In this document: positions 14,633 to 64,000 of the stretch, piece by piece | Numbering within the stretch: the stretch's first letter is position 1 | Layout of the letters: every line of letters starts with the position of its first letter | Assembly: GCA_030595925.1 (NCBI GenBank) | Contig: JAUVLC010000001.1 | Span: 1,476-65,475, forward strand | Direction: 5' to 3' | From: Clostridia bacterium | GTDB taxonomy: Bacteria; CBDUZB01; JAGLHV01 | DNA: 64,000 nucleotides | The notes under the pieces: generated by a model | What the model was told of the DNA's origin: nothing | The model's database searches: none | What the model saw: the letters and a program-made list of their open reading frames with translations, nothing else | Made by a program: the position numbers and the translations under genes

Positions 14633-14637
14633 CATTT

Positions 14638-25382: not shown

Positions 25383-25388
25383 CTCCTT

Positions 25389-25697
25389 TAGAGCTAAGAG
25401 CTAAGAGCTAAGAGCTAAGAGCTAAGAGCTGAGAGCATAGAGCTAAGTGCTAAGTGCTTAGAGCTAAGAGCAAAGAGCTAAGAGCTAAGTGCTAAAAGCT
25501 AAGAGCTTAGAGCTAAGAGCAAAGAGCTAAGAGCAAAGAGCTAAGTGCTAAGTGCTTAGAGCTAAGAGCAAAGAGCTAAGAGCTAAGAGCTAAGAGCAAA
25601 GAGCTAAGAGCAAAGAGCTAAGTGCTAAGTGCTTAGAGCTAAGAGCAAAGAGCTAAGAGCTAAGAGCTAAGAGCTGAGAGCATAGTGCTAAGAGCTT
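25389..25697. repeat. AGAGCWW heptamer tandem array (~44 units)
   Basis: Direct read: agagcta agagcta ... agtgcta agagcaa agagctt; period 7. Confidence 0.9.
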
Positions 25698-25779
25698 AAC
25701 GATTAGTTAATTTCAGATTAATCTGTAATTTTTTTATCATGAATCGTGAATCCTGTATCCTGAACGAAAGGAAACAAAA

Positions 25780-26124
25780 ATGTTTAACATTTCCCAAGAG
25801 GCAAAAAATAATTTTAATTTAGGAAATAATTATTTTAAGCAGAAAAATTTTGCAGCGGCAATCTTAGCCTATCAAAAAGCTCTAAAAATCTGTCCGGAGT
25901 ATATAGATGCCTATAATAAATTGGGAATAATTTATGTTTTTCAAGGTAAATTTGAATCAGCAAAAAATGTATATTTTAAAATAATTGAAACAGAAACAGA
26001 AAATTATAAAATTCGTTATATGTCACATAATGCCTTAGGTGAAATTTACAGCAAATTAGGAAACTATAAAGAAGCCATAAATGAATTTAAAAAAGCGGCA
26101 AGGAGTATTAAGCAAAGAGCTTAG
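25780..26124 (+). CDS. TPR-repeat protein
   Basis: 114 aa; TPR-like AxxxYxxALxxxP repeats (AILAYQKALKICPEYIDAYNKLGIIY...); the C-terminus runs into the heptamer array. Confidence 0.55.
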   Translation: MFNISQEAKNNFNLGNNYFKQKNFAAAILAYQKALKICPEYIDAYNKLGIIYVFQGKFESAKNVYFKIIETETENYKIRYMSHNALGEIYSKLGNYKEAINEFKKAARSIKQRA

Positions 26125-26298
26125 AGCTTAGAGCTATGAGTTTAGAGCAAAGAGCTTAGAGCATGGTAGCCGCAGGCTTTCCTCCAAACAGATGGCGGAC
26201 AAGTAGCCTGCGAATTAACCAATTTTCCACTAGTAAAAAATGGCAAATAAGCATATTTTCAGATTGAGGGACTGATGATTTTTTTCAACAGTCCCTAA

Positions 26299-26499
26299 TT
26301 AAATATTAGAATTCTGATTTTTTATCCATTCCGCAACAAATCGATTCATTTTAAGTCTCGTCTCTTCATTTCTCGGTTCAAAAGAAAATTGTTCTAAAAT
26401 ATCTTTCATAATCTGTTTTTTAAACTTTTCCACTTCCGAAGGCAAAGTTAAAACAAATTCAGCATCTGACTCATCAAAAACGATATATTCTTCCATCAT
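26299..26499 (-). CDS. hypothetical small acidic protein
   Basis: 66 aa ORF with an AAGGAAAGGA RBS; no recognisable domain. Confidence 0.3.
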   Translation of the reverse strand: MMEEYIVFDESDAEFVLTLPSEVEKFKKQIMKDILEQFSFEPRNEETRLKMNRFVAEWIKNQNSNI

Positions 26500-26517
26500 T
26501 AATATCCTTTCCTTATT

Positions 26518-26951
26518 AAGCTTAGAGCTAAGGGCTTAGAGCTAAGGGCATAGAGCTAAGAGCTAAGTGCTAAGGGCTAAGAGCTAAGGGCTGAGAGCTA
26601 AGAGCATAGAGCTAAGAGCATAGAGCTAAGAGCATAGAGCTAAGAGCTTAGAGCTAAGAGCAAAGAGCTAAGAGCTAAGTGCAAAGAGCTAAGAGCTTAG
26701 AGCTAAGAGCTAAGAGCATAGAGCTAAGTGCTAAGAGCTAAGAGCAAAGAGCTAAGAGCTAAGAGCTAAGAGCATAAAAGCAAAGAGCTAAGAGCTAAGT
26801 GCAAAGAGCTAAGTGCAAAGAGCTAAGAGCGTAGAGCATAGTGCTAAGAGCTTAGAGCTTAGAGCTAAGAGCAAAGAGCTTAGAGCTAAGAGCATAGAGC
26901 GTAGAGCTAAAAGCTAAGAGCTTAGAGCTAAGTGCTAAGAGCATAGAGCTT
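26518..26951. repeat. AGAGCWW heptamer tandem array (~61 units)
   Basis: Longest AGAGCTA-type array in the window; degenerate units AGAGCTA/AGGGCTA/AGAGCAT/AGTGCAA. Confidence 0.9.
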
Positions 26952-26984
26952 AACGATTAATTAATTACAGATTAATCTGTAATT

Positions 26985-27112
26985 TGCAATCTGTAATTTT
27001 TTTATCCTGTATCCTGAATCCTGTATCTTGCATCCTATATCCTGTATCGTGAATCGTGAATCGTGTATCGTGAATCGTGTATCGTGAATCCTGTATCGTG
27101 AAATGTTATTCC
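26985..27112. repeat. ATCNTGW heptamer tandem array
   Basis: atcctgt atcctga atcctgt atcttgc ... atcgtga atcgtgt; preceded by the palindrome CAGATTAATCTG and AATCTGT units. Confidence 0.9.
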
Positions 27113-27235
27113 TGCAGACAGAATGTGTTGTTTTACAGAACTCTAAATATCTTTTCTCTTTCTATCTGTGTAATCATCTTTTTTAAATCTGTGTAATCAA
27201 GTATCTGCGAAAACTTTTGAGCAGATACTAATTAT

Positions 27236-27667
27236 TTATTCCAACTCTAACTTTTTAAAACGTTCTGAATCCACAGATGCATCTAAGTCCTTTATTTCTT
27301 CGTCTTTAGTTGAACTACATTTTTCTTCTTGTTTTGTTAAAACTTTTGTTTCCCTTGAAGGAGATTTAATAGTAAAAGCCTTTCCCTCTAAGTTAATAGT
27401 CACTTTACGGTCATCTATTTTAAATATTTCTAATTCCGGAAAATGATACTGCTTTTTTATCTGATAAATAAGTTCTATAAAAGAAAGTATATTTTTCCCC
27501 CCAAATAAATCCTCACGGTCTTTATCCAATCTAAAAGGGGAATTACTTTCGATTACATATACTTTTATTAAGTGACTTAAAATCTCTACTAATTCATCTC
27601 TTTCTAAATTTTGAAGAGACTTAACTATTTCCTGCTTTACTTTCTGATTTTGATTTAATGGTTCCAT
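27236..27667 (-). CDS. hypothetical protein (last gene of the 28795->27236 operon)
   Basis: 143 aa; RBS AAAGGA; no domain recognised. Confidence 0.45.
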   Translation of the reverse strand: MEPLNQNQKVKQEIVKSLQNLERDELVEILSHLIKVYVIESNSPFRLDKDREDLFGGKNILSFIELIYQIKKQYHFPELEIFKIDDRKVTINLEGKAFTIKSPSRETKVLTKQEEKCSSTKDEEIKDLDASVDSERFKKLELE

Positions 27668-27679
27668 CTCTTTTTTCCT

Positions 27680-28357
27680 TTATTTATCCCATAGACAATT
27701 TTTTAATTTACTTTTATCTAAATTTACTTTAACAAACTTTGCTCCCCGGAAATCAATACAACTTAGATTAGCTCCCTCTAAATTTACATTTATTAAAACA
27801 GTCCCTCTGAAATCAGCGTTTTCAAGATTAGCCCCTTTTAAGTTTACATCTAATAATACTGCGTTACTAAAATTTGTCTTTATCAAAGAAGGAGTGCCAA
27901 GAAAATTGTCAGCTATAAAATTAGTATGTATAATCGTTGCTTTCCTGAAATTACTTCCGTAGAAATCAGTGTTCTTAAACTCTGTTAAAATAATGCTCGC
28001 CCTTTCGAACGACGAATTCATCGAAAAACAATCACTAACTTTAGTATAGTGAAAGTAGGAACAAGAAAAATCAGATTCTGCAAGGTTAGAAGAAAATATA
28101 TTCGAACTATCAAAAACACAAAACGCAAAATTGGTTTTGCAAAGCATTGCTTTAAAAAAGATAGTATGGTTTAGTTTAGAATTATTTAAATCTGAAGAAG
28201 TAAGATTCAAATCTTTTAGAGAAGTTTGATTTATTTCAACTTCCGATAAATTCACTTCATTCAAATTAACTTTATCAAAAATATCCTGCGAAAATTTCTT
28301 TTCTTTTTTATATTTTTCTAATATCAATTCACGGCTAAATTTAGAATATTCCGCCAT
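27680..28357 (-). CDS. pentapeptide-repeat protein
   Basis: 225 aa dominated by A(D/N)LxG-type pentapeptide repeats (NLENADFRGTVLINVNLEGANLSCIDFRGAKFVKVNL). Confidence 0.75.
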   Translation of the reverse strand: MAEYSKFSRELILEKYKKEKKFSQDIFDKVNLNEVNLSEVEINQTSLKDLNLTSSDLNNSKLNHTIFFKAMLCKTNFAFCVFDSSNIFSSNLAESDFSCSYFHYTKVSDCFSMNSSFERASIILTEFKNTDFYGSNFRKATIIHTNFIADNFLGTPSLIKTNFSNAVLLDVNLKGANLENADFRGTVLINVNLEGANLSCIDFRGAKFVKVNLDKSKLKNCLWDK

Positions 28358-28360
28358 TTT

Positions 28361-28795
28361 TTAATCCTGCTTCTCAACTTCTGTGACAGTAGATTTACCA
28401 ACGACTTTCGATTTTTTCTCGTTAATTCCCTGATTTTCAAAAATAGTAGCCATATTTATATCAATAGGTTGCCCACACTTCTCACAAGATACTTTTTCCA
28501 TTGTATCTCCCTTGCTATTTATCCTGGAATGAAAATCCTGTAAATAATTAAGATCTGCAAGAAAAAGTTTTTCTATTACTTCCGAAGTTATTTCGGTCAA
28601 AGGACCCAATTTAGTTATAATTCTGGAAAGCAGAAGTATTGGATAATAATCTTCATTTCTTGCTATTCTTTGATCGTTAGATACTTCTATCTCATCTTTA
28701 GCATTAACTAACCTCATACACCCTTTTCGATAAAGCCTTCCACTCTCATCCCTATAACCAATTGGGAGTACAAAATCAAATTCTGTCTGTAACAT
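28361..28795 (-). CDS. hypothetical protein with a C-terminal zinc-ribbon (CEKCGQP)
   Basis: 144 aa; conserved leader AAAACGAAAGGAGG upstream; tightly coupled to the pentapeptide-repeat gene. Confidence 0.45.
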   Translation of the reverse strand: MLQTEFDFVLPIGYRDESGRLYRKGCMRLVNAKDEIEVSNDQRIARNEDYYPILLLSRIITKLGPLTEITSEVIEKLFLADLNYLQDFHSRINSKGDTMEKVSCEKCGQPIDINMATIFENQGINEKKSKVVGKSTVTEVEKQD

Positions 28796-28930
28796 TTTTC
28801 TATTACCTCCTTTCGTTTTTAAGCTAAGAGCTAAGAGCTAAGAGCTAAGAGCTTAGTGCAAAAAGCTAAGAGCAATCTAAACCCGCATTTTTTTATCCTG
28901 TATCATGTATCATGTATCATGTATCATGTA

Positions 28931-29137
28931 TCATGTATCATGTAATTTGGACTGATTTTCCTGTTCTACTTCCTCTTCATAAAACTCAGAAGTTTTTTCT
29001 CTTTCCACTACCTCTCCCATCGCTCCTTCTAAAAACTTAGAAAAATCAAGACATTTCTTACCTTTCACCCCTTTAACATGAATTGTTATTTCTCCTTCCG
29101 GAGAAATACTAATTTCCATTTCTTTTTTCATGACCAT
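28931..29137 (-). CDS. DUF2997-like small protein
   Basis: 68 aa; MEISISPEGEITIHVKGVKGKKCLDFSKFLEGAMGEV...EFY fits the DUF2997 pattern; overlaps the DUF1257 gene by 10 nt. Confidence 0.55.
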   Translation of the reverse strand: MVMKKEMEISISPEGEITIHVKGVKGKKCLDFSKFLEGAMGEVVEREKTSEFYEEEVEQENQSKLHDT

Positions 29138-29532
29138 TTCCTCACTACCAATTTTATAGTTTGATCTTCTTCTACTTTATCCTCTACTAAGGTAAAACCC
29201 TGTTTTTTGACCTCACTGCTAACTTTGTTATAGGCATAGCGTTGCCTTAATTTCTGCATAAATTCTTCCTGCTTAAATCCAGCATGTGATTCTACTCCCC
29301 ACCAGTCAGCAAAAACTTCACACATACCTCCATCCTTTACTTTAACGCCTATGTCGTAAGAACTTTTGGTATCAATTTTCAAATCCGCTTCCTCTTGATT
29401 TCCATTCCAGCCTCGTACATAAACTTTGGCTTTATCCTTGCCTTCTGTATATTTATACCCTAATTCTTCTATCGTCTTCTTTAAACAAACCAAATCATTA
29501 ATTTTTGTATCTACTTTGGTAAAATGAGACAT
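29128..29532 (-). CDS. DUF1257 (Ycf35-like) protein
   Basis: MSHFTKVDTKINDL...VRGWNG...YDIGVKV...ADWWGV are hallmarks of DUF1257; RBS GGGAGG supports the start at 29532 (the track's extension to 29577 reads through the heptamer array). Confidence 0.65.
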   Translation of the reverse strand: MSHFTKVDTKINDLVCLKKTIEELGYKYTEGKDKAKVYVRGWNGNQEEADLKIDTKSSYDIGVKVKDGGMCEVFADWWGVESHAGFKQEEFMQKLRQRYAYNKVSSEVKKQGFTLVEDKVEEDQTIKLVVRKWS

Positions 29533-29707
29533 AAAAATTTTCCTCCCTTTTTTCACGATACACGATTCAAGATACATGATACAAACAAATTATTAGTGGT
29601 AGCCGCAGGCTTCAGCCTGCGTTTCCTTATGGTCATTGCTAATAGCTAAGAGTATTTCAAATTAACCTATATTCTATAATTCTATATCCTGTATCCTGTA
29701 TCGTGAA

Positions 29708-31261
29708 CTATATTTCCAATTTCCGGGAACTTTTTTCCGTATCTTTAACTATATCCATAGACGCTCTTCTTGCCCTGGTCTTTGCCCATTCCCGTATAGC
29801 TTTAATTTCTCTTTCCATTGTCTGAGAAAGAGGAATTAATTCATTAGCACTGTGAATTACCAGGTCTGTATTAATATCTGTATTTGATTCAAAAGCATCG
29901 TATAGAGCGGATATTATCACTTCTTCAATTTCCGAACCACTATATCCTTCTGTATCTTGAGCTATTTTTTCAATATCAAAATCCTGGGGATTTCTTTTCC
30001 TTTTCTGAATATGAATACGAACAATTTCTTTTCTTTCCTCAAAATCAGGTAAATCTACATAAAAAATCTCATCAAAACGACCTTTACGCAGTAATTCCGG
30101 TGGAAGTAAACTAACATTATTAGCAGTAGCTACTACAAAAACAGGGCTATTCTTTTCTTGCAGCCAGGTAATAAAACTGCCAAAAACCCTTGCGGTTGTT
30201 CCGGCATCTGAAAAAGAAGAACTTTGAGTTCCGGAAAAACCCTTTTCCAACTCATCCATCCATAGAATAGATGGGGCAACGGCTTCCGCAGTTTTAATTG
30301 CTTTTCTCATATTTTCTTCCGAAGAACCGACTAACCCGGCAAATATCTTTCCTACATCTAAACGCAACAGGGGTAATTGCCACAAATTACCTACAGCTTT
30401 AGCAGTGAGAGACTTCCCACAGCCGGGTATACCGATAAGTAAAATTCCCTTGGGCTGGGGAAGACCAAATTCTCTGGCCCGCATAGTAAAAGCTAAACCT
30501 CTTTTTCGCAGCCATTGTTTTAATTCTCCTAACCCTCCCACATCATCAATTTTTTCGTTCGCATTGTAAAATTCTAAAATCCCTGATTTTCTAATTATCT
30601 GTTCTTTTTCCGAAAGAATTACATCGATATCAAACTGTCCCTTCTTTACTAACGATTTGGCAAAAACACTTTCTGCCTCGTTGGCAGTCAATCCCAAAGC
30701 TGCTTTTACAATCCGCTCTCTTTGATTTTTATTAAGAGTAGTTTCTACCTTCGAATTATTAGGTAAAGATTTTAATATTCCATCAATAATTTGATTTAAT
30801 TCCTCTGCAGCCGGTAAATTATAATCCACCACGACAATCTCTTTCTCCAACTCAGCAGGAATTTTAAGCAAAGGAGAAAGAAAGATTAAGTTTTTATAAC
30901 TATTTTTTAAAAGCCTATTAACATCCCTTAACCTTCGCACAACTACCGGATCTTTAAAATACGGATGAAAATCACGAAAAACGAAAATTGCATTTTCTTT
31001 TGAATTAATCACTAATTCCAAAGCTTTCAGGGGATCTTTTAAATCCGGTGATTCATTTTTTATTCCGGTAATTCCTTCAGTAATCGACCAACAAATTAAT
31101 TTCTTTTCCCGCTTAAAAGCAATTTGCCTCAGGGTATTTTCTACCCGCATTTCTTCACAGGATAATAAGTATATTAAAGGATACCGTGCTCTAATCAAAC
31201 ACTCAATTTCTTCCAGTATTTTGTTATTGTCCTCTTTATCATGTTTAAATTTTCCCTCCAC
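29708..31261 (-). CDS. AAA+ ATPase (CDC48/FtsH-like single AAA module)
   Basis: Walker [10 protein letters not shown], Walker B ILWMDELE and SRH region; probable GTG start at 31261 with RBS AGGAGAGG; either the partner of DUF1257/DUF2997 or an eCIS Afp15-like assembly ATPase. Confidence 0.8.
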
Positions 31262-31328
31262 ATTCCTCTCCTTTCTTTCACGATACACGATACATGATTC
31301 ACGATACATGATACAAACAAATTATAAA

Positions 31329-31397
31329 CTGGTAGCCGCAGGCTTCAGCCTGCGTAATTTCTCCCATACAAACGCAACCTAAAGGTTGCGGCTACCA
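31329..31397 (+). repeat. three-way-junction hairpin element (GGTAGCCGC...GCGGCTACC)
   Basis: An outer 9-bp stem GGTAGCCGC/GCGGCTACC encloses hairpins GCAGGCTTCAGCCTGC and GCAACCTAAAGGTTGC; the related core GGTAGCCGCAGGCTTYAGCCTGCG occurs at 26165, 29597, 32731, 34346 and 38617, and inverted at 43823, 44896 and 57698. Confidence 0.6.
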
Positions 31398-31521
31398 CTC
31401 TAATAATCTGAAATCTGTAATCTATAATTTTTTTATCCTGTATCCTGTATCATGTATCCTGTATCATGTATCTTGTATCATGTATCCTGAATCTTGCATC
31501 CTGTATCCTGTATCGTGCATA

Positions 31522-32661
31522 TCATGTATCGTGAAAATATTTACAAAAAATACATTCATCCCAGTCTTTTTTCATCCATCTACCACATTTATCACATCTT
31601 ACCCTTGTAGAAGGCGCACCTAAAATTTCTATATCCTCAATTCTTCTTTGACGTAAGACAAACCAACCTATTAAGATTAAAACGATAATTATACCCATTA
31701 CTATTAGAAGTACAACCCACTTTGATATAGGCACAACCGTTGCAATAAAATTTTTAGTATCGCTTATGGTTTTTCCCTTATATTTTGTTTTTATAGTTAA
31801 TTGATGCAAGCTATCATCCGGTTCAATTTTAGCAGCTTTAAATTCAATTATGTAGTTTTTTTCTATTTGAGATAGCATTTTCTGCAAAATACCGGATATC
31901 ATAGTTGATTTTTTGGCTTTAAGATATAGTCCCCCCGTAGCTTTAGACATTTTTTCAAGATTTCTTAAGTCTTTTGTACCTAACAGAGAATAGCCTATTG
32001 TGTAAATAGGTATATTATGAGTTTTTGCTTCTTTTATTACTTCACTAAATGTTATCTTACTGCCGGTATCTCTCCCATCCGATATAATAATTACTGCCCG
32101 TCTTAAAGGCAGGTTTAAATCTTCTTTTAAAAGGATTTTTGCCTGCCACACCGCATCATATAAAACCACCGTACTACCCATCACTTTAAGTTTACTAATT
32201 TTGTCCTTTCTCTTTTCGCTATCAGCAGTAAACCCGGATATTGTTTTTACATGATCACCAAATGCAAGAACGGCAATTTTATTTTTGGCGTTTAATTTGG
32301 AAATAAAATTAACAACCGCTCTTTTTTCGTCATTTAAAGGTTTACCTTTTAATATCCCATTAGCACTCATCACCACTACAATAGACACACCCTCATCTTT
32401 AAATTGAAATCCTTCTACATTTATTTTTTTCCCTCCGGGTGTCCCATCCTCGAGCATCTTAAAATCATCTTTAGACAAAGTGGTTACCGCCTTATGCTGA
32501 CCATCAGCTACCGTAACATACGCTTTAACCTTTGGAAATTGGGAAGAATTTACCTGATCTATTCTTAAATAAGGACCCGCACCCATAGCAATATTAGACT
32601 TAAGAATTATTCCTAATATTGTCAAATATAATATCTGCTTTTTTAAAACCCCACCAAACAT
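31522..32661 (-). CDS. von Willebrand factor A (vWA) domain protein with a TM segment and C-terminal zinc-ribbon
   Basis: Signal peptide; vWA MIDAS-type region (VVVMSANGIL...ISDGRDTG...IPIYTIGYS); a TM helix near residue 310; C-terminal CDKCGRW...CIFC. Confidence 0.7.
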   Translation of the reverse strand: MFGGVLKKQILYLTILGIILKSNIAMGAGPYLRIDQVNSSQFPKVKAYVTVADGQHKAVTTLSKDDFKMLEDGTPGGKKINVEGFQFKDEGVSIVVVMSANGILKGKPLNDEKRAVVNFISKLNAKNKIAVLAFGDHVKTISGFTADSEKRKDKISKLKVMGSTVVLYDAVWQAKILLKEDLNLPLRRAVIIISDGRDTGSKITFSEVIKEAKTHNIPIYTIGYSLLGTKDLRNLEKMSKATGGLYLKAKKSTMISGILQKMLSQIEKNYIIEFKAAKIEPDDSLHQLTIKTKYKGKTISDTKNFIATVVPISKWVVLLIVMGIIIVLILIGWFVLRQRRIEDIEILGAPSTRVRCDKCGRWMKKDWDECIFCKYFHDT

Positions 32662-32874
32662 ATTTAATCCCTCCTTTTATGAGCTAAGAGCTTAGAGCAA
32701 AGAGCTTAGAGCATACTGCTTGAAGCACATAGGTAGCCGCAGGCTTTAGCCTGCGATTCTTTTTGATCATTGCTAATAGTTAAAAATATTTTAACCCAGT
32801 CTAAAATCTGCAATTTGTAATTATTTTTTATCATGAATCTTATATCTTGTATCATGTATTTCCTTCTAAGTTGT

Positions 32875-33105
32875 TTACTTTACGCTCTTAGTTTTTTATT
32901 CTTTATTCTTTTACTCTAAGCTCTTAGCTCTTAGCTCTTAGCTCTTAGCTCTATGCTCTTAGCTCTAAACTCTTTGCTCTAAGCTCTACGCTCTAAGCTC
33001 TACGCTCTTAGCTCTATGCTCTTAGCTCTATGCTCTAAGCTCTTAACTCTAAGCTCTGCACTCTATGCTCTATGCTCTATGCTCCTTAGCTCTATGCTCC
33101 TCACA
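32875..33105. repeat. TAGCTCT (reverse-orientation AGAGCWW) heptamer array
   Basis: ctcttag ctcttag ctctatg ctctaag ...; preceded by the junction motif TTTCCTTCTAAGTT. Confidence 0.9.
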
Positions 33106-33487: not shown

Positions 33488-33665
33488 TCTTAGTCCTCCT
33501 TTCGTTTTTAAGCTAAGAGCTTAGAGCTAAGTGCTAAGAGCTAAGTGCTAAGAGCTTAGTTAATTTAAAAATTAATCTGTAATCTGTAATTTCTGTATCC
33601 TGTATCCTGTATCTTGTATCTTGTATCTTGTATCTTGTATCTTGTATCTTGTCTCCTTTTTCCTC

Positions 33666-33694
33666 TTGACAAAATTAAAATATGATGTTATAAT
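33666..33694 (+). promoter_or_regulatory. sigma70-type promoter for the MazE/RelE-like toxin-antitoxin pair
   Basis: TTGACA (33666-33671), a 17-nt spacer, then TATAAT (33689-33694); the RBS AGGAGG and ATG at 33745 follow. Confidence 0.5.
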
Positions 33695-33744
33695 TATATT
33701 GAAATATGAAATTCATATATTCAAATTATCTCAGGAGGTTAACC

Positions 33745-34014
33745 ATGTTAAGAAAATTAGGACAAAGTTATCAAATCGCTTTACCAAAACAGATTATAAA
33801 AGAACTTGGACTTAAAGTAAATGACTATTTAGATGTAATTACAAAAGATAACAAAATCATTATTGAACCAAAAGTCTTAATTCCCAAAGAACAAGCCTAT
33901 TTCTATACCCCTCACTGGCAAAAGGGTGAAAAAAAAGCTAGTAAAGATATTAAAAAAGGTCGTGTTACCAAAACAAAGAACTTAAAAGAGCTATTTAAAA
34001 AATTGGATAAATAA
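33745..34014 (+). CDS. AbrB/MazE/SpoVT-family antitoxin
   Basis: MLRKLGQSYQIALPKQIIKELGLKVNDYLDV swapped-hairpin beta-barrel signature; AGGAGG RBS; the start sits 39 nt inside the ORF-track call. Confidence 0.6.
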   Translation: MLRKLGQSYQIALPKQIIKELGLKVNDYLDVITKDNKIIIEPKVLIPKEQAYFYTPHWQKGEKKASKDIKKGRVTKTKNLKELFKKLDK

Positions 34015-34017
34015 CCT

Positions 34018-34275
34018 ATGCATATAGAAGCAACTGCTACTTTTACAAAGCTTTATAAAAAATTACCTTCTAACATTAAAGAGAAAGTAAAAAAAGCTTT
34101 AAAACTTTTACAAAACAATCCCTCTCATCCTTCTTTACGACATAGAAAAATAGCCGGTCAATATGACATCTTTGAAATAAGCATAACAATGAACTATAGA
34201 ATAACCTACCAAAAAATTAGAGAAATAGCTTACCTTAGAAAAATAGGCACACATGATATTTTGAACAAACCCTAA
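34018..34275 (+). CDS. RelE/ParE-family toxin
   Basis: 85 aa; its start lies 3 nt after the antitoxin stop; C-terminal pattern RHRKIAGQYDIFEISITMNYRITYQ...IAYLRKIGTHD is typical of RelE/ParE. Confidence 0.55.
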   Translation: MHIEATATFTKLYKKLPSNIKEKVKKALKLLQNNPSHPSLRHRKIAGQYDIFEISITMNYRITYQKIREIAYLRKIGTHDILNKP

Positions 34276-34345
34276 ACACAATTCATGCTACATGATTCAA
34301 AATTCAAAATACACGATACACAATGTATGATACAAATTTCAACTT

Positions 34346-34434
34346 GGTAGCCGCAGGCTTTAGCCTGCGTAATCTTTTTCCCTTATAAACGCAACCTTCC
34401 TCCAGAGGCGGACAAGAAAGGTTGCGGCTACCTT
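34346..34434 (+). repeat. three-way-junction hairpin element, extended copy
   Basis: GGTAGCCGCAGGCTTTAGCCTGCG...GCAACC(ttcctccagaggcggacaagaaa)GGTTGCGGCTACC. Confidence 0.6.
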
Positions 34435-34584
34435 CTTTTATTTTTAATTGCTAATCTTTTAATCTGTAATCTTTTTTTGCAATCTGCAAAACCCTCATTT
34501 ATACAAGCAGATTTGCTTGCAAGCAAATCTGCTTGTAAACATTATAATAAACATCAATGCCCCTGTCAAAGAAAATATAACTTA

Positions 34585-34768
34585 GGCTTACTGAAAAATG
34601 CAAATCCGCCTCAAGCGAACAAAATATCGACGGAATAGATATACAAATAATTGCATATAAATTTTTCAGTAAGCCTTGATTACACCGATTTTGTCGTACA
34701 GGTTTTAATCTGTGTAATCTCCTTTCTAATCTGTGAAATCAGGGGCTGCTGGTTTTTTCAGCAGACCC
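34585..34768 (-). repeat. MITE-like element, copy B (inverted, shorter variant)
   Basis: Its reverse complement aligns with 14150-14355 and lacks a ~30-bp internal segment; it abuts the stop of gene 34771. Confidence 0.6.
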
Positions 34769-34770
34769 TA

Positions 34771-35616
34771 TCATTGAAACAACTCCTCAACCATCAGCAT
34801 ATTAGTTCCGTGTGTATGCCACCCTGCTGTACACTCAGTTGCATGGTTATTCTTAACCTGTACATCTATAGTATGCTCACCAGCAGAAATATCCGGAACC
34901 AAAATCATATGGGAAGCAAAATTCATAGACCAGTTTACACCAATAACACCAGTGCCGCCACTAATATAAAGAACCCCATCTCCATCAATTCTTACTCGCC
35001 AATCAGAGGCAGCGAAGGCTGAACTTCCTCCTTGATAGTGACCCAAACAATCATAATAAACTATTCTAAGTACTGAATTATCGTATTTTTTAGTAAAGTT
35101 TAAAATTCTATCCGGATAGGTCGTCCAACTTGTGGGAGTAAGTCGGTTATCAGGCATCCCTTTCATATAAGTAATGTGACTTTTGGGTTTTTCCGAATGT
35201 TCGGCTTTTTCCGAATATAAAGAATATGCTACCCCGGTTAATTCTTCTCTGGGTTTAAGTATTGTTGTCTCTTCTATAATAATCTCTAAATAATATGTTG
35301 CTTCATTCCATTCAATATCCGATAATGATTTGTTACTACCCAATTGATAATTAAATAAACCATTATTTATCAAAACATCCTGCTGTTCACTGTTCCAAAT
35401 AGAATTTCCCCCTGCAGCAACATTATAAATCTTAAACTCTATTGTTTTTGTTCCGTTAACCGGCTCTCCATTTTCTTTCAATTTACCCTGATAATTAATC
35501 TTTCCCGGCAAGCCAGCAAAGAGCAAAGAGCTTTGAGCATAGAGTAAAAAGCAAAAAGCTAAGAGCATTGAGCGTAGAGTAAATGATACGATCCCCTTAA
35601 ACAAAATTTTCTTCAT
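34771..35616 (-). CDS. secreted tail-fibre/adhesin-like protein (paralog of 42723..43661)
   Basis: Signal peptide encoded by the AGAGCWW array; the N-terminal ~120 aa are nearly identical to 42723..43661 (GLPGKINYQGKLKENGEPVNGTK...NGLFNYQLGSNKSL...PREELTGVAYSL). Confidence 0.5.
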   Translation of the reverse strand: MKKILFKGIVSFTLRSMLLAFCFLLYAQSSLLFAGLPGKINYQGKLKENGEPVNGTKTIEFKIYNVAAGGNSIWNSEQQDVLINNGLFNYQLGSNKSLSDIEWNEATYYLEIIIEETTILKPREELTGVAYSLYSEKAEHSEKPKSHITYMKGMPDNRLTPTSWTTYPDRILNFTKKYDNSVLRIVYYDCLGHYQGGSSAFAASDWRVRIDGDGVLYISGGTGVIGVNWSMNFASHMILVPDISAGEHTIDVQVKNNHATECTAGWHTHGTNMLMVEELFQ

Positions 35617-35753
35617 TTTTCCTTCCCCTTTCTTTATTAAGCTAAGAGCTAAGAGCTAAGAGCTAAGAGCTAAGTGCTTAATTAATTTAAACTTAATCTG
35701 TAATTTCTGCATCCTGTATCCTGTATCGTGAATCCTGTATCGTGAATCCTGAA

Positions 35754-36317: not shown

Positions 36318-36364
36318 TTTCCTTCCCTCCTTTTTTTCATGATTCAAGATACACAATACATGAT

Positions 36365-36757: not shown

Positions 36758-36945
36758 CACCACCCTCCGTCAATCCATCCTGCATCCTGTATCGTGTATC
36801 CTGTATCCTGTATCATGAATCTTGTATCCTGCATCCTGTATCCTGTATCATGAATCTTGTATCCTGTATCCTGTATCCTGAATCCTGAATCGTGTATCCT
36901 GTATCGTGTATCCTGTATCCTGTATCATGAATCTTGTATCCTGTA

Positions 36946-57927: not shown

Positions 57928-58977
57928 TTATACTGCATTTCTTCTCACACTAAACGATGTAGTGTATCCTTCAGGATGAAAAACATGTGTAGAAGATACT
58001 ACATAATAGTTACCACTAAATCGTTTTCCCAATGCCTTCAACTCTAAAATCGTTCCTGCTCTAATTTTTGGATTACCACTGCAAGTTCCCTCAGCAGTTA
58101 TAAAATCCATAGAAATTTCGTTAAATTTTGCCTGAGCAATATTTTCCGCTTCACTTTGACTATGAATGGAATTATCTATCAGCATCACCTTAGAATCCCC
58201 AATAAAATCCTTAATCAGCTTTCCACCTGAATTGTTTCCCTTCATGGTGGTTATTTCATCACCACTGGTAGCTTGGGCAATTATTACCTGCTGTTTTTTA
58301 GTATCCCAGCCTCTTACTTCTACCTCACTTGCCTGATGAGCAATAGAAAGAGAAGAATAAAATTCTATAAGTGTTTTTCCCCATTCCAAAATAACATTTT
58401 CAGATAAATTTTCCCGCGACTTGATAAATTTAAGTGTCTTGTCTTCTACCCCCAGTTCATAACGAATTCTTTTTGCTCTCTCCAGCAGAAACTCAAGATT
58501 CGTTTGATTATCCTGAAGTAAATAATCATGAACGACATTAGTTTCATCTAATTTTGGATTAAGTCCTACTTCCTGAGCAATTTGAGCTGCTATTTGCGAA
58601 TCTTTCATTTGCACAAAAGTTCTTGTTTTTCTATTATGCTTTAACCTATGCATCCTATCAAACCCTCTAACTGTCAAATTATCAGGTGACCCTTTTGTAT
58701 AACCTGCATCTAAGGCAGTAATCTCACCTACTACCATTGTTGTTATATCGTTTAAATAACCCAAATCTATTTTTACCTCACTTTGTAAAAAGAGCAAATC
58801 CGAACCCGCCCATTCCCGTCCACTATCATTTAAAGTAAGAGTAAACATAGTAGGAGTATTCAAATAATCCTCTATTATTATTTCAGAAATAGCCGCTATA
58901 GCTTTATCTTTAAGCCTTTGACCATTTACATAAATTAAGAAACTCGGTACTAATTTACCTTTGTCATCTCCCGGCAT
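57928..58977 (-). CDS. baseplate hub protein, phage late-control gpD/gp27-like (tentative)
   Basis: ~350 aa; lies directly upstream of the gp5-like spike as in P2 (D...V) or T4 (gp27-gp5); start refined to MPGDDKG with RBS AAGGAG; weak motif-level support. Confidence 0.4.
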   Translation of the reverse strand: MPGDDKGKLVPSFLIYVNGQRLKDKAIAAISEIIIEDYLNTPTMFTLTLNDSGREWAGSDLLFLQSEVKIDLGYLNDITTMVVGEITALDAGYTKGSPDNLTVRGFDRMHRLKHNRKTRTFVQMKDSQIAAQIAQEVGLNPKLDETNVVHDYLLQDNQTNLEFLLERAKRIRYELGVEDKTLKFIKSRENLSENVILEWGKTLIEFYSSLSIAHQASEVEVRGWDTKKQQVIIAQATSGDEITTMKGNNSGGKLIKDFIGDSKVMLIDNSIHSQSEAENIAQAKFNEISMDFITAEGTCSGNPKIRAGTILELKALGKRFSGNYYVVSSTHVFHPEGYTTSFSVRRNAV

Positions 58978-59347
58978 AATTATCATCTCCTTCTTTTCAC
59001 GATACAAGATACAGGATACAGGATACAGGATACAGGATACAGGATACAAAATTCAAGATTTAGGATTCACGATTCAGGATAAAAGCAATTACAAATTTCA
59101 AATTGATTCGCTGTTTTCAATCTAATTTTTATCCTGTACCTCGAAATATCATTCCTACGCGTCTTTAATGTCATTCCTGCGGAAGTAGGAATCTATTACA
59201 TTTTAGATTCCATATCAAGTACGGAATGACAGAATGTTTGTATCATGTATCGTGTAATTTCACCCTCACCTTATTCCTCTCCCCTCAAGGGAGAGGAAAA
59301 TCCTGCATCGTGTATCCTGTATCATGTATCGTGAATCCTGTATCATG

Positions 59348-59968
59348 TTAATAAAGCGGTGGTATTTTCAATCGTCTACCTGGCTTTATATTCATTGGAT
59401 CATCAATACCATTAGCATCAGCAATGACCCTCCATTTATTGGGGTCATCATATTCTTGAGCAGCAATCGTAGTCAAATTTTCTCCTTGTTTTATAGTTCT
59501 TCTTTTGGTATGGTCAGCAGAATGTCTGGGTTTTTCCTGCATTTGACTATAGGCAGTACTATACTCTTTAAAAAGTACCTTTAAGGTTGCTCTTACAGGA
59601 GTTCCATCGTTTAAAAACATAGTAAATCTTGCCACCATATCTTCTAAGACACATTTAAATTTTAATTTGCCCCAACTAAAAAGACACAAAGGAGGCCTGT
59701 GTTGGTCCGCATTAACCATCATTAACTCCTCAATCTTTTTAGTATAATTCCTCACATCCGTCCGTTCTTCAGAGGTATCAAAAAACAATTCCATAGAAAG
59801 TTTTTTTCTTTCCCCGGTAGTAAACTCCACCGCCGGAGAATCTAAACCCTGAATCTGATGTTCCTTCCAGGGGGTTTTCTTTTCAACTACATATTCCTTA
59901 GGGTTAAAAAGAACTTTAATCTCCTCATTGGTATCTAAATTAGTTATAGTTGCTTTTTCAAGAGCCAT
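59348..59968 (-). CDS. LysM-domain tail protein (tube-initiator / P2 gpX-like)
   Basis: N-terminal tube-like domain (IKVLFNPKEYVVEKKTPWKEHQIQGLDSPAVEFTTGERKKLSMELFFD) plus a C-terminal LysM (RTIKQGENLTTIAAQEYDDPNKWRVIADANGIDDPMNIKPGRRLKIP); start MALEKATI with RBS AAAGGAGG. Confidence 0.55.
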   Translation of the reverse strand: MALEKATITNLDTNEEIKVLFNPKEYVVEKKTPWKEHQIQGLDSPAVEFTTGERKKLSMELFFDTSEERTDVRNYTKKIEELMMVNADQHRPPLCLFSWGKLKFKCVLEDMVARFTMFLNDGTPVRATLKVLFKEYSTAYSQMQEKPRHSADHTKRRTIKQGENLTTIAAQEYDDPNKWRVIADANGIDDPMNIKPGRRLKIPPLY

Positions 59969-60127
59969 ATTTATAGCCTCCTTTCTTTCACGATACAAGA
60001 TTCATGATTCACGATACAGGATTCAGGATACAGGATTCAGGATACAAGATTCAAAATCCAAGATCCACGATTCAGGATTCAGGATACAAGATATAAAATA
60101 CAGAATGCAGAATTCAGGATGCAGGAT

Positions 60128-60916
60128 TCACCCAAAGACACTTATATATTTTTTGTAAAAGTTTCTATACTCTACATCTGTTAATCTTTCTTTTGCTATT
60201 TTTAAATCCCGCTTGATTTTCTTTTCCATCATTCTATAAACTTTTTGTATATCTTCTTGTGTACAATTAATTACTTTACCGTTATCAAATTTTACTGCAA
60301 TTAATTTATTAGTGTTTGTATGAAAATTTATAGAAACAACCCTTGTTTCTTCTGATTCTGTTTTTATCTTTGCCTGAATTCTTTTATCTTTAGATAATTT
60401 TACTTCTTCCTGTGTTGGTTCTATCGATTGTCCCTGAACAAAGACTAAATCTTGTTCATTTGCTAATGCCTCTTGTTCTAACTGTCTCATCTTTTCTATA
60501 CTGGCATTTTTTGTTTCTCCCTTTTCTTCCTGCATTATATGTGTCATTTCATGCTTAAGTAATCTTATTCCTTCTTCTGTATCCGGTCTGAATTTTCCCC
60601 TGGCAAAATATATGTCTTTCCCTGCGGTAAATGCCTCTGCCCCAATCTTCCCAGCGGCCAAATTAGATAATTCATCCGTATGAATCTTTACATTTTTTAA
60701 ATCCTGCTCTGCAACCGGTTCTAACTTTGACAAGGTATCTACATCTAAAGTTCGGGAAGGCTTCATCCTGTTTAATTCCTTTTCCATAAAATCAAAAATT
60801 TCCGATGGTATAGCCTTAAAACTTTTCCCCAATTCCATCTTAGGAAGAAAAGTCTTACTTTTACCTTTACCGGTCAATTTTATCGTCCATTTAATTTTTT
60901 TAATGTGTAGTGACAT
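60128..60916 (-). CDS. DUF4157 (eCIS-associated metallopeptidase-like) domain protein
   Basis: VKIHTDELSNLAAGKIGAEAFTAGKDIYFARGKFRPDTEEGIRLLKHEMTHIMQ matches the DUF4157 core (...AFT.G.DI.F..G.Y.P.T..G..LL.HELTHV.Q). Confidence 0.8.
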   Translation of the reverse strand: MSLHIKKIKWTIKLTGKGKSKTFLPKMELGKSFKAIPSEIFDFMEKELNRMKPSRTLDVDTLSKLEPVAEQDLKNVKIHTDELSNLAAGKIGAEAFTAGKDIYFARGKFRPDTEEGIRLLKHEMTHIMQEEKGETKNASIEKMRQLEQEALANEQDLVFVQGQSIEPTQEEVKLSKDKRIQAKIKTESEETRVVSINFHTNTNKLIAVKFDNGKVINCTQEDIQKVYRMMEKKIKRDLKIAKERLTDVEYRNFYKKYISVFG

Positions 60917-61002
60917 TGTTTCTTCCTTTCATAAGCTTTTTTCGGGTCGAATCCTTCTAGTTCTCTAGGACAAGTTAATCCAACCCCCTACAACTCTTAT
61001 AG

Positions 61003-62631: not shown

Positions 62632-62644
62632 GTCTTCTCCTAAA

Positions 62645-62772
62645 AGCTTAGAGCTTAGAGCATAAAGCGTAGAGCTTAGAGCGTAGAGCTTAGAGCGTAG
62701 AGCTTAGAGCATAGAGCTAAGTGTTAAAAGCTAAGAGCTTAGAGCAAAGAGCTAAGTGCTAAGAGCGTAGTG
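62645..62772. repeat. AGAGCWW heptamer array
   Basis: agagctt agagcat aaagcgt agagctt agagcgt ... Confidence 0.85.
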
Positions 62773-62828
62773 TATCCTGTATCCTGTATCCTGTATCATG
62801 TATCTTGTATCATGTATCTTGTATCCTG

Positions 62829-63350
62829 TTAAATATCATGCATCTTCTTCTTTTTCATATATTCTCTGCAAAAATTGGTAAATAAATCCCTAACAGTACT
62901 TTTTGCGGACACACCTGTTTCTTGTAAACTAACATCCTTATCTTCTTCTCTTTGTGGAGAAGCTTTCTGTACCGGAATAGATTTATTTTGTCTATCAATC
63001 TTTACTACAGGTTGTCCCTTTCCGCCTTCTGCATAAGACGAAGTAGCTTTATCCCTGTTGTTAAAAAGAGAGAGAAGAACAAAATCACTTTCAGAATGTT
63101 CAGCAGACCGAACAGGTCTATCATCATTTTTACCAGGTACTTCTATCTTGTTACTTATTATTGTAGGACTAATTTTTGGATAAACCGCTTTGTCAGTTAT
63201 GTTTTTAGATAACTGGTTCGATATTAAAGGTACATTATTACCCACTTTGTTATCTTCAAAAAAAGGGGATAGAGAAAATAGTTTTTCCATAATAGCAGGA
63301 AATGGCGATTCTCTTTCTATGAGCATAGGGCTAAGAGCATAGGGCATAGA
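62829..63350 (-). CDS. hypothetical protein (true start uncertain; the upstream ORF extension is repeat-derived)
   Basis: The track ORF 62829..63785 reads through the ATCNTGW array (IQDTRYR...); the plausible real starts MPYALSP/MLIERES/MEKLFSL lie after an AGAGCWW remnant; no domain recognised. Confidence 0.3.
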   Translation of the reverse strand, partial: SMPYALSPMLIERESPFPAIMEKLFSLSPFFEDNKVGNNVPLISNQLSKNITDKAVYPKISPTIISNKIEVPGKNDDRPVRSAEHSESDFVLLSLFNNRDKATSSYAEGGKGQPVVKIDRQNKSIPVQKASPQREEDKDVSLQETGVSAKSTVRDLFTNFCREYMKKKKMHDI

Positions 63351-63404
63351 GTTTTTGTTTATTGGTCCTTCGCCTGAGAAGGATAAAGCGAATTGTTCAT
63401 TAAT

Positions 63405-63650
63405 GCTTGCATCCTGTATTTTGTATCCTGTATCGTGCATCCTGTATCGTGTATCCTGTTCTTCATCCTGCACCCCAAATTTTGGATTATGTATTCTGTA
63501 TCTTGGATCCTGTATCGGGTATCTTGGACCTTGTACCGGATATCTTGGATCCCGTATCGGAAATCGTGCATCATGTATTTTATGTTTTATGTCCTGCATC
63601 CCAGGTTCCGTATCTCCTGCATCCTGCGTCCTGTCATCCAGCATCTTTAA
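63405..63650. repeat. ATCNTGW heptamer array (mixed, degenerate)
   Basis: atcctgt attttgt atcctgt atcgtgc ... atcttgg atcccgt; the source of four overlapping spurious ORFs. Confidence 0.85.
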
Positions 63651-63749
63651 ATAATATTCTTTCATTGTCATCGTAGGAATAATATATTTAGAAATTTCCC
63701 CTGTCTCATTGGGAATATTCGGTAATTCGGACAAAGCATCTCGTGAATC

Positions 63750-63935
63750 CTGCTCTATGCTCCTTACTCTATGCTTTTCGTTCAATGTTCTTTGCTCTAT
63801 GCCCTTTGCTCCATGCTCTTCGCTCCATGCTCTTTGCTCTTTGCTCTCTACTCTATGCTCCCCGCTCTTTGCTCTTTGCTCTCTGCTCTCTGCTCTATGC
63901 TCTTCGCTCTTTGCTCTTCGCTTAGAAACAGGAAT
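63750..63935. repeat. reverse-orientation AGAGCWW (GCTCTNN) heptamer array
   Basis: ctctatg ctcctta ctctatg ... ctctttg ctctctg. Confidence 0.85.
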
Positions 63936-64000
63936 ATTTACTATCTCATATGTAGGTTTTTTATGTATATTTGAATAGGCGGGAAATTCTTCACCTTTTT

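Follow-up and report, generated by a model that had tools for sequence, protein, structure and literature searches.

Heptanucleotide arrays fill the spacers of a contractile injection island

We examined a 64,000-nt stretch of contig JAUVLC010000001.1 (assembly GCA_030595925.1, positions 1,476 to 65,475; hereafter the window), in which the spacers of a ~38-kb gene island carry hyper-expanded arrays of heptanucleotide simple-sequence repeats. It is well supported that these arrays comprise three unit families arranged in a quasi-palindromic intergenic module, and that they lengthen and shorten in 7-nt increments through slipped-strand mispairing or unequal exchange. Judging from the comparisons below, it is equally well supported that whole modules can invert, duplicate and receive gene cassettes. 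The modules have a defined anatomy and a polarity relative to the genes, are unstable, and are restricted to the island. Tentatively, at a probability of about 0.45, we read them as transcribed, length-drifting intercistronic or 5'-untranslated region (5'-UTR) spacers, a role for which transcription, processing and an effect on expression are presumed.

The window divides into a core, from position 1 to ~25 kb (genes at 1-24.3 kb), and the island, from 25,390 to the window end. Tandem Repeats Finder detected ~40 arrays of period 7 (also 14 and 21), none of which starts before 25,390. Those of greatest size lie at 25390-25696 (43.9 copies of AGAGCTA), 26519-26950 (432 nt, ~61 units) and 38695-39127 (61.6 copies of TATCCTG). 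An independent autocorrelation scan at period 7 returned 25 segments totaling 3,257 nt, with none before 25,380, and a looser setting returned 42 segments (3,343 nt). Arrays thus account for ~3.3 kb, or 8.5%, of the island. Two degenerate patterns, GCTCTNNGCTCTNNGCTCT (96 matches) and GATNCANGATNCANGAT (183 matches), matched only at or beyond 25,390, and neither occurred in 100 dinucleotide shuffles. Considering spacers longer than 30 nt, 24 of 29 in the island bear arrays compared to none of five in the core (hypergeometric estimate, p ~0.001). Within the island the arrays are mainly intergenic, and only their ends enter doubtful starts of open reading frames (ORFs). The initial annotation had placed heptamer arrays from 25.4 kb onwards and none in the core, and the repeat finder, the autocorrelation and the shuffles all confirm this.

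A separate JGI metagenome contig, L124, carries the same arrays, which excludes an assembly artefact. We also inspected core contigs of five related lineages (L001-L003, L158-L163; ~110 kb) and found no arrays there, despite spacers of 170-890 nt. Contig L144 comes, together with L141, from a relative in another metagenome and is syntenic with the window across the island/core junction. Its rimP-nusA core spacer holds one short tract of another unit (CAAGCAC, three copies), and its island spacers include an additional AGGCACA-type heptamer family, so this lineage is able to make other heptamers. Provisionally, then, the three-family dialect appears to travel with the island, and the proposed confinement of the arrays to an accessory island holds in all sequence examined, both the 25-kb core of the window and the ~110 kb of core from relatives being array-free.

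Three unit families follow a mirror-image order

Read on the coding strand, the units fall into three families: a/A, NNGCTCT, or more closely (T/A)(A/T)GCTCT; b/B, WCANGAT, that is (A/T)CA-N-GAT; and c/C, ACAGATT. Only two families had been recognized before, with AATCTGT/ACAGATT taken for linker units; these form the third. The arrays are imperfect, and their variation sits at positions 1-2 of family a and at positions 1 and 4 of family B. In family B, entropy is 1.84 bits at position 4, 1.25 at position 1 and 0.4-1.05 at positions 2, 3 and 5-7. GATC is nearly missing from B arrays, with C following GAT in 2 of the 183 listed matches.

We read every spacer on the minus strand and tokenized it, which yielded the full coding-strand grammar A-J-B-C / c-b-a-SD-ATG, where SD is the Shine-Dalgarno sequence and the slash marks the center. 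Here A is AGAGCTA in sense orientation, J is the junction AACTTAGAAGGAAA, B is ACAGGAT in sense orientation followed by a run of A, and C is ACAGATT. After the center come optional hairpins resembling repetitive extragenic palindromes (REPs), then c, b (ATCCTGT sense), a (TAGCTCT sense), the SD and the ATG. The spacer grammar is therefore a nested palindrome whose center is the perfect palindrome ATTACAGATTAATCTGTAAT. Its commonest form is the subset B-C-a-SD, found in 10 spacers; the mirror half c-b-a-SD occurs in spacers 39991 and 54700, arms of the type B...b enclose REP elements in spacers 31262, 38455 and 59050, and a near-complete module, A26-J-B-C-REP-a5-SD, lies at 32662-33100. The usual order previously proposed (B array, ACAGATT units, a array, SD, ATG) is thus present in 10 of the 24 array-bearing spacers, but the others are truncated or mirror-image forms. 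Likewise, the inverted array arms noted in several spacers exist, but they belong to the general nested palindrome.

Units are polar with respect to the genes, with 163 a-units in gene sense versus 28 opposite and 195 B-units versus 45. The conserved linkers said to join the arrays are present, but each is rare: CAGATTAATCTG and TTAATTAATTTAAA occur twice in the window and TTTCCTTCTAAGTT three times, while there are two copies of TTAAAAACGAAAGGAGG and three of its core, GCTTAAAAACGAAAGGAG. A strong AGGAGG starts 1-15 nt past the end of an a or b array, and the SD junction GCTTAAAAACGAAAGGAG is common to several genes and to the relative (L141/L144); together these indicate that the modules carry a ribosome-binding site. 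The a-arrays place TAG or TAA in every frame and leave a longest stop-free run of 18-34 codons. This agrees with what had been said of AGAGCTA/TAGCTCT; the companion statement, that ATCATGT and similar units lack stops in all six frames, fails for ATCATGT, which has TGA on its complement. TGA is likewise present in the units ATCGTGA and ATCCTGA, and B arrays as they actually occur are therefore closed in some frames.

The array-bearing spacers are given below on the minus strand, with the number of units after the family letter.

25390-25696, minus: a-array of ~44 TAGCTCT-type units (AGAGCTA on the plus strand), adjoining the AAAGGAG SD and ATG of the radical-SAM-like gene 24507-25382.
25700-25763, minus: central linker with the palindrome ATTTCAGATTAATCTGTAAT (C and c units), an A7/T7 run and four B units; on the plus strand it reads as a b-array plus the ACGAAAGGAAAC SD for the TPR gene 25780-26124.
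26519-26950, minus: a-array of ~61 units, the site of both L124 indels.
26955-27102, minus: linker with the palindrome ATTACAGATTAATCTGTAAT at 26964-26983, C units and A7, then a B-array of ~14 units.
28822-28944, minus: compact module B7-linker-a5-TTAAAAACGAAAGGAGG, upstream of a 144-aa gene.
31262-31530, minus: hairpin type, with B12, C3, a REP doublet (GGTAGCCGCAACC.../...CGCAGGCTGAAGCCTGCGGCTACC) and an inverted b-array.
32662-33100, minus: fullest module, with an A-array of ~26 units in AGAGCTA sense (32914-33099), J AACTTAGAAGGAAA, B, C, REP, a5 and SD; the L144 orthologue is a simple A4...a5 hairpin of 138 nt.
33507-33672, minus: B8-C3-linker-a6-TTAAAAACGAAAGGAGG, upstream of the FHA gene.
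35630-35757, minus: B6-C-TTTAAATTAATTAAG-a5-SD; the L144 orthologue (2566-2668) is B2-C-a5.
36777-36947, minus: B-array of 24 units filling the spacer between a 502-aa gene and the 23S_rRNA_IVP gene.
38455-39132, minus: 678-nt spacer with a B-array of ~62 units (38695-39127), C2, REP, SD and two inverted b-arrays (38474-38508 and 38568-38602); fold z = -8.8; the L144 orthologue is 58 nt.
39991-40221, minus: mirror half c-b-a-SD, upstream of Tail_P2_I.
42507-42632, minus: a-array of ~15 ATGCTCT/TAGCTCT units, adjoining the SD of the PAAR gene.
43662-45096, minus: spacer interrupted by the AF2212-like/PIN toxin-antitoxin pair (44011-44747, plus), with B-C-REP modules duplicated on either side (43744-43915 and 44818-44989) and a degenerate A-array plus J junction at 45011-45095.
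48579-48623, minus: short module B3-C-a2-SD, upstream of gp25.
51538-51720, minus: array-only module B8-linker-a8-SD; folded as 51500-51730, its RNA has less structure than any of 200 shuffles (z = +4.4).
53727-53889, minus: degenerate A units, J junction and B7, downstream of a Phage_base_V gene.
54700-54839, minus: mirror half c-b4-a5-SD, upstream of a Phage_base_V gene; this and the preceding spacer bracket one Phage_base_V gene with inverted flanks (b a ... A B).
57573-57927, minus: B arrays and the third copy of the 172-nt B-C-REP element (57621-57792).
58990-59350, minus: B arrays and small repeats (CCTCTCCCTTGAGGGGAGAGG; TGTCATTCC...GGAATGACA), fold z = -5.9; an inverted b-arm enters the annotated 5' end of gene 57928-59049.
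59987-60131, minus: b-array of ~20 units (ATCCTGW sense on the coding strand) filling the spacer upstream of the CIS tube gene.
62639-62835, minus: B8 followed directly by an a-array of ~18 units and SD, upstream of an eCIS_core gene.
63408-63926, minus: spacer at the window end, with B units at 63408-63470 and, at 63751-63922, an A-array in AGAGCTA sense; these overlap a doubtful ORF call.

Arrays change in 7-nt steps and spacers rearrange

Contig L124 matches window positions 25691-32612 (6.9 kb), and the only differences are a run of N (a scaffold gap) and two indels in one array. The 61-unit a-array at 26519-26950 has lost 35 nt (5 units) at one place in L124 and gained 14 nt (2 units) at another. 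Orthologous spacers in L141/L144 measure 37, 58, 78, 138 and 103 nt versus 738, 678, 397, 439 and 137 nt, respectively, in the window; they share its A/B/C units, linker (AAATTACAGATTAATTTTAAATTAACTAAGC) and SD junction but have far fewer unit copies. The expansions are thus lineage-specific, with short forms in L141/L144 and complete absence at some orthologous sites. The suggestion that array length varies is therefore borne out both by the 7-nt-step indels in L124 and by the unit-number differences in L141/L144.

Beyond changes in length, the spacer between the radical-SAM-like and TPR genes is B4-C-a43 in the window, facing the radical-SAM gene, and A3-b4 in L144, which indicates that it has flipped. 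Two type II toxin-antitoxin pairs sit in island spacers, both against the operon direction, and are missing from the orthologous spacers of L141/L144. One, MazE/ParE (33706-34275, plus strand), has a perfect TTGACA-17-TATAAT promoter, with which it spans 33666-34275; the other, AF2212-like/PIN (44011-44747, plus), lies between two direct copies of a 172-nt B-C-REP unit that is present three times in the window. A 23S_rRNA_IVP gene (PF05635, an Avd-like four-helix bundle) occupies different spacers in the two islands (window 36365-36763 vs L141 1577-1975) and looks like a small mobile gene. It adjoins B arrays in both islands. The ends of paralogous genes also run into array modules, with 88% identity over 300 nt between 35318-35617 and 43363-43662 and 78% over 300 nt between 35707-36006 and 51669-51968. 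This continuity suggests duplication or gene conversion spanning gene ends and spacers together. Of the idea that the arrays are substrates for shuffling gene cassettes, one part stands, as the spacers are sites of rearrangement (one inversion and the toxin-antitoxin insertions); the genes themselves are ordered as in a conserved eCIS operon and not as shuffled cassettes.

REP-like hairpins within the modules

The hairpin embedded in some modules is the REP-like element GTAGCCGCAGGCTnnAGCCTGCGG, comprised of GTAG and a GC-rich palindrome (GGTAGCCGCAGGCTnnAGCCTGCG). It occurs eight times in the window (29598-29621, 31331-31396, 32732-32755, 34346-34369, 38617-38640, 43823-43846, 44897-44920 and 57700-57723). 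The site at 31331-31396 is an inverted doublet, resembling the paired-REP elements known as REPINs, and in some copies the loop is interrupted by CTTGTCCGCC...GGAGGAA. GTAG with an imperfect palindrome, often as an inverted doublet, defines a REP; the hairpin element alone has this form, and the heptamer arrays do not. We take this form to be the one used by REP-associated tyrosine (RAYT) transposases. No RAYT or transposase gene was found in the window, where the only integrase-family gene is XerC/D-like and lies in the core.

Such an arrangement raises the question of whether the composite palindrome, with or without the GTAG-type hairpins, is itself an element akin to REPINs or miniature inverted-repeat transposable elements (MITEs) that enters spacers by transposition and takes cassettes along. 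The mirrored ends, the contrast between filled and empty sites at orthologous positions (738 vs 37 nt), the 172-nt unit that twice flanks a toxin-antitoxin pair, and the presumed RAYT-type form of the hairpin would all fit. However, the one filled/empty pair compared by eye (window 26498-27235 vs L144 9569-9605) lacks a target-site duplication, the window lacks a gene for the transposase, and modules differ mainly by unit number, their lengths varying continuously rather than by presence or absence of a fixed length. We consider a transposing element of this kind very unlikely.

The island is an eCIS locus with a separate ancestry

The first 24.3 kb of the window encode, all on the minus strand, alaS, an xerC/D-like gene, recA, a miaB-like gene, ftsK, pnp, ribF, infB, nusA and rimP. 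From 25.4 kb, the predicted genes include the contractile injection system (CIS) tube, a GPD/YQBQ hub, two Phage_base_V spikes, gp25, Baseplate_J, PAAR and Tail_P2_I. They are joined by two eCIS_core (DUF4157) genes, an AAA ATPase, DUF1257/DUF2997, VWA, FHA, pentapeptide and TPR proteins, and proteins with type IX secretion system (T9SS) tags. By this gene content the island is an extracellular contractile injection system (eCIS), an Afp/PVC-like locus. The host is, as far as its proteins indicate, an unclassified deep-branching bacterium; the best named homologues of its PNPase (Elusimicrobia, Zixibacteria, Omnitrophica) are 55-57% identical. Nearly all genes lie on the minus strand, and GC skew is strongly negative (-0.2 to -0.45) in core and island alike.

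Island genes share 88-93% DNA identity with L141/L144, compared to only ~74% for nusA/infB. The island boundary lies just upstream of a conserved rimP promoter, TTGCAA-N17-TATAAA, with a hairpin (window 24271-25382). In two closer relatives (PNPase identity 92% and 83%), proS is adjacent to rimP and the island is not at that site; at the corresponding positions of L158 (1781-1957) and L161 (2729-3091), proS adjoins the rimP promoter. What follows there in the window and in the more distant L144 is the radical-SAM-like gene, the TPR gene and then the eCIS locus. These patterns are most simply read as horizontal transfer of the island. More distant eCIS operons (44-45% Baseplate_J identity) have spacers mostly below ~250 nt, many below 80 nt, and no period-7 arrays, so the spacers seen here are an add-on to a normally compact operon. 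Exact-protein look-ups of the radical-SAM-like and FHA proteins gave no match.

RNA folding and promoter content of the spacers

Predicted folding separates two kinds of spacer. Array-only modules fold about like or worse than dinucleotide shuffles (z of about -0.8 to +4.4), while z reaches -6 to -12 where a spacer contains inverted arms, REP hairpins or other palindromic repeats. In a test of the hairpin arms, spacers 31262, 32662 and 38455 gave z of -6.8 to -12, with array-only modules in the range just given; for 31262-31530, the minimum free energy of the RNA is -97.4 kcal/mol versus -51.3 in shuffles (z = -11.5). The predicted unpaired probability of the SD is 0.16-0.86 (median ~0.36) behind a-arrays, 0.67-0.84 behind B/b arrays and mostly 0.67-0.80 for core genes. 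Arrays of ACAGGAT, ACAGATT and TAACTGA have zero predicted structure. We rejected selection for unstructured RNA as an explanation of the arrays, as zero structure is common among heptamer classes (24% of all).

Per-gene promoter or insulator modules had been suggested, with a promoter in each linker and a transcriptional insulator in each array. The organism appears to use sigma-70-type promoters, as the rimP promoter conserved in relatives illustrates, and some linkers contain weak -35/-10-like matches. Yet sigma-70-like sites are not enriched over shuffles (87 vs 79.5 and 74 vs 75.5), and no -10 is conserved at fixed spacing across the linkers. The only two perfect (12/12) promoters, one in an inserted toxin-antitoxin cassette and one orphan, both lie outside the array modules. 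The suggestion thus finds no support, and we regard it as highly improbable. Terminator-like matches in our scan are the REP hairpins, and an Rfam covariance scan of the window brought only tRNA-Arg (1209-1281) to its gathering score.

Relation to known repeat systems

Heptamer arrays have reportedly been known in cyanobacteria for decades, and subsequently in sulfur bacteria, Bacteroidetes and many other groups. The arrays had initially been taken for an undescribed repeat class, but heptanucleotide intergenic tandem arrays are already on record (Mrazek 2007, on long simple sequence repeats, LSSRs, as relayed in PMC4679880; MacGregor 2015, PMC4679880). The arrays in the window belong to this known class of heptanucleotide LSSRs and short tandemly repeated repetitive (STRR) sequences, of which they are an extreme, grammatically ordered and island-borne variant. 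They share its 7-nt period, intergenic location, many tandem units per array, several unit types per genome, copy-number polymorphism in 7-nt steps, patchy phylogenetic spread and lack of an assigned function. They differ from other members in filling 8.5% of a 38-kb island with up to ~62 units per array, in placing three families in a fixed mirror order with shared linkers and SD junction, and in being island-confined in the sequence examined, whereas LSSRs and STRRs spread genome-wide.

In Beggiatoaceae, Cyanobacteria and Bacteroidetes, TAACTGA repeats directly precede start codons, with 7-nt strain indels, suspected horizontal spread and, in Bacteroidetes and Cyanobacteria, mixtures of heptamers reaching 43 copies (MacGregor 2015, PMC4679880). 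Our arrays are similarly placed directly upstream of start codons and polar with the gene, and have in common with the TAACTGA repeats the mixing of heptamers (there in some Bacteroidetes spacers), a suspected post-transcriptional role and suspected horizontal spread. Unlike those repeats, they consist of different units, are followed by a strong canonical SD (SDs are rare in the BOGUAY repeat spacers), have a second family after stop codons, and follow a palindromic overall design.

In Nostoc, heptamer tracts near start codons alter reporter expression in a manner that is unsettled. To our knowledge, the hmw array of Haemophilus influenzae is the only heptamer array with a demonstrated mechanism. 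There, (ATCTTTC)n is transcribed in the 5'-UTR of hmw1A/hmw2A and forms a hairpin arm that is cut by RNase III, expression is inversely proportional to repeat length, and changes in repeat number depend on transcription (PMC12721329). The window resembles hmw in having heptamer arrays before start codons, with variable copy number; in spacers with inverted arrays, the array is also predicted to be an arm of a long hairpin. In contrast to hmw, which is a single locus with a single family and a G-rich non-repeat partner arm, the window has dozens of spacers, and the partner arm is an inverted array.

Other intercistronic repeat systems are less similar in form. Like REPs, REPINs and bacterial interspersed mosaic elements (BIMEs), the modules are intercistronic and have hairpin-forming inverted copies, and GTAGCCGCAGGCTnnAGCCTGCGG has the REP form and occurs as a doublet; unlike them, the heptamer arrays are variable-number direct repeats rather than fixed-length palindromes, and the window holds no RAYT. 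As in integrons with attC sites, including the Vibrio superintegron, an imperfect palindrome lies between almost every accessory gene and cassettes have inserted in spacers. There are, however, no attC R/L boxes, and integron cassettes are ruled out by the lack of an IntI integrase in the window and by a gene order that matches compact eCIS operons. With clustered regularly interspaced short palindromic repeats (CRISPR) the arrays share only regular repetition: they are contiguous 7-nt units without unique spacers, scattered between genes, and no cas domains were found among island proteins. We therefore agree with the initial annotation that this is not a CRISPR array.

The same units occur in other genomes

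Scanning one genome per GTDB species for (AGAGCTA)3, we found at least 120 stretches in more than 70 organisms of more than 10 phyla, with GC contents of 0.33-0.71. The matches listed include Acidobacteriota, Gemmatimonadota, Cyanobacteria, Bacteroidota, Gammaproteobacteria, Omnitrophota, Planctomycetota, Firmicutes and others; the source organism is not among them. Among these listed matches, 135 of 138 arrays are intergenic, and ~27% have an inverted partner array within 250 nt compared to 4% of single control windows (~9% when both flanks are counted). Numerous further heptamer units are present at the loci listed. When metagenomes were scanned with the junction of B-array and A-run, 15 matches appeared, none from the source organism, and unrelated metagenome contigs of GC 0.40-0.50 contain [WCANGAT]n-A7-[inverted units] between genes. 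Viral contigs gave 1 and 4 matches versus 3 and 1 in composition-matched controls, counts too low to inform. We claim no special status for these units beyond their wide recurrence.

Among the matches listed in Acidobacteriota, Gemmatimonadota and others, arrays with an AGCT core often form inverted pairs just upstream of start codons, and the AGAGCTA array there frequently adjoins the ATG without a separate SD.

A possible role as length-drifting spacers

Because the eCIS genes share one orientation and make up an operon-like block, transcription probably crosses the spacers, yielding intercistronic or 5'-UTR RNA. In the reading we tentatively prefer, the purine-rich B array would trail the upstream stop codon and the pyrimidine-rich a array, (UAGCUCU)n, would lead to the module's own strong SD. 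With stops in all three frames, the a array would uncouple each cistron from upstream translation, while its CUCU tracts would partly mask the GGAGG of the SD. Inverted partner arrays could pair in many registers, forming long hairpins at which the RNA may be processed or its stability set. The number of units would thereby become a drifting per-gene expression rheostat, by analogy with the (ATCTTTC)n 5'-UTR of H. influenzae hmw1A.

Several observations weigh against this role. The operon structure is itself presumed from co-orientation and from the homologous compact operons, and long untranslated spacers in an operon would normally invite Rho-dependent polarity. Shuffled a-arrays mask the SD equally well, so masking is an effect of CU-rich composition, and SD sequestration specific to the order of the array is ruled out. 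TAGCTCT contains an AGCT core and folds more than the majority of heptamers, 64% of heptamer classes being less structured. Most spacers have no complementary partner array, so a hairpin role cannot be general. In the listed matches from other genomes, AGAGCTA is the sense found next to start codons in 34 cases versus 8 for TAGCTCT, the opposite of the window, which argues against a universal orientation-specific function. Finally, array size differs 10-20-fold between relatives whose genes are ~90% identical, with no compensating change visible, which is what neutral expansion predicts.

Neutral or selfish expansion is accordingly a serious competitor, which we nonetheless hold to be somewhat doubtful. 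On this account one ancestral module was gene-converted among spacers, short tracts then expanded by slippage, the island being a recent acquisition that is seldom expressed and under weak selection, and the arrays do nothing; their order and polarity would merely reflect descent from an SD-bearing module forced to face its gene. Several findings are as expected under it: the huge copy-number gaps between close relatives at orthologous sites and the absence of arrays at some, the 7-nt-step indels between otherwise identical contigs, the array-free state of distant eCIS operons, and spacer flanks and linkers that are, judged by eye, about as conserved as genes (80-93%). (AGAGCTA)3 is also no commoner than controls in viral contigs, at the low counts given above, and heptamers are the commonest class of long simple-sequence repeats in bacteria, attributed to polymerase slippage (Mrazek 2007, as relayed in PMC4679880). 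Neutral growth fits less well with variation limited to two of the seven positions per family, with the same WCANGAT degeneracy and A-run in unrelated metagenome contigs, with unit families kept at orthologous sites across ~10% divergence, and with a strict mirror grammar. It also leaves more than 100 kb of the lineage's core array-free despite spacers of 170-890 nt.

The positional conservation could instead point to a multivalent binding platform, in which the invariant GCTCT and CA-GAT positions are read by a sequence-specific DNA or RNA binder that coats the spacers, such as a nucleoid-type silencer of the island or an RNA binder of S1, CSP or RRM type. Fully degenerate N positions and the recurrence of the same degenerate motif in other taxa would suit such a binder, whereas copy numbers of 2 to 62 speak against a defined stoichiometry and no candidate binder was identified in the window. 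CsrA needs GGA, and the HutP motif is UAG-N4. We claim neither motif for the arrays, as the required bases fall on variable unit positions: the GGA of CsrA is broken at one, and the UAG is not conserved for HutP-type binding. S1, Csp or CsrA-type binders have also been proposed for the TAACTGA repeats (MacGregor 2015, PMC4679880). Overall we judge a binding platform to be quite improbable.

A more elaborate scheme would treat the families as a 'zipper' code that brackets each eCIS gene (b a - gene - A B), pairs in RNA or DNA and is read by a dedicated factor. It would set per-gene expression and at the same time be a recombination substrate that inverts spacers and captures the toxin-antitoxin pairs and the 23S_rRNA_IVP gene. 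We think this code unlikely; if true, it would be a heptamer-based counterpart to integrons or REPINs, moving with the island between hosts.

Whichever reading holds, including the transcribed-spacer role that we favor, the locus is an unusually clean natural experiment: a compact, well-understood eCIS operon with array modules between nearly all genes. The contrast comes from a ~90%-identical sister island with short modules and from a near-identical contig that differs by 7-nt-step indels. If array length alters expression, the effect would be measurable gene by gene against the known stoichiometric needs of the injection machine; if it has no effect, the locus would clearly exemplify microsatellites that grow neutrally and unchecked within an operon of a bacterium. 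Also notable beyond this locus is the intergenic position of (AGAGCTA)n arrays in organisms from more than 10 phyla, together with the 34:8 start-codon orientation bias among the matches listed.

Additional repeats and a putative transcript

Long non-coding stretches at 14027-14915 (core), 34276-34770 and 49446-49988 share GATTACACAGATT units and a TTACTGAAAAATTTATATGCAAT-type segment; they fold with z of -4.5 to -6.7 and gave no Rfam match at the gathering threshold. Two further repeat families occur in spacers, CCTCTCCCTTGAGGGGAGAGG...GGTGAGGGTGAA at 49905-49885 and 59296-59276, and TGTCATTCCGTACTTGATA...GCAGGAATGACA at 57883 and 59231, the latter with versions in spacers of L144 and L141. 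The orphan perfect sigma-70 promoter lies at 34541-34569 (minus) and is followed by a 34-nt palindrome (ACAAGCAGATTTGCTTGCAAGCAAATCTGCTTGT) and then by a strongly folding, REP-containing stretch down to ~34300, with no ORF following. Its transcript may be a small RNA or an antisense to the toxin-antitoxin pair. Within coding sequence, the LysM-domain gene contains a 393-nt tandem duplication with 89% identity (41092-41875), and the T9SS-tagged 660-aa gene contains coding repeats of 183-195 nt (NHL repeats; 52613-53596).

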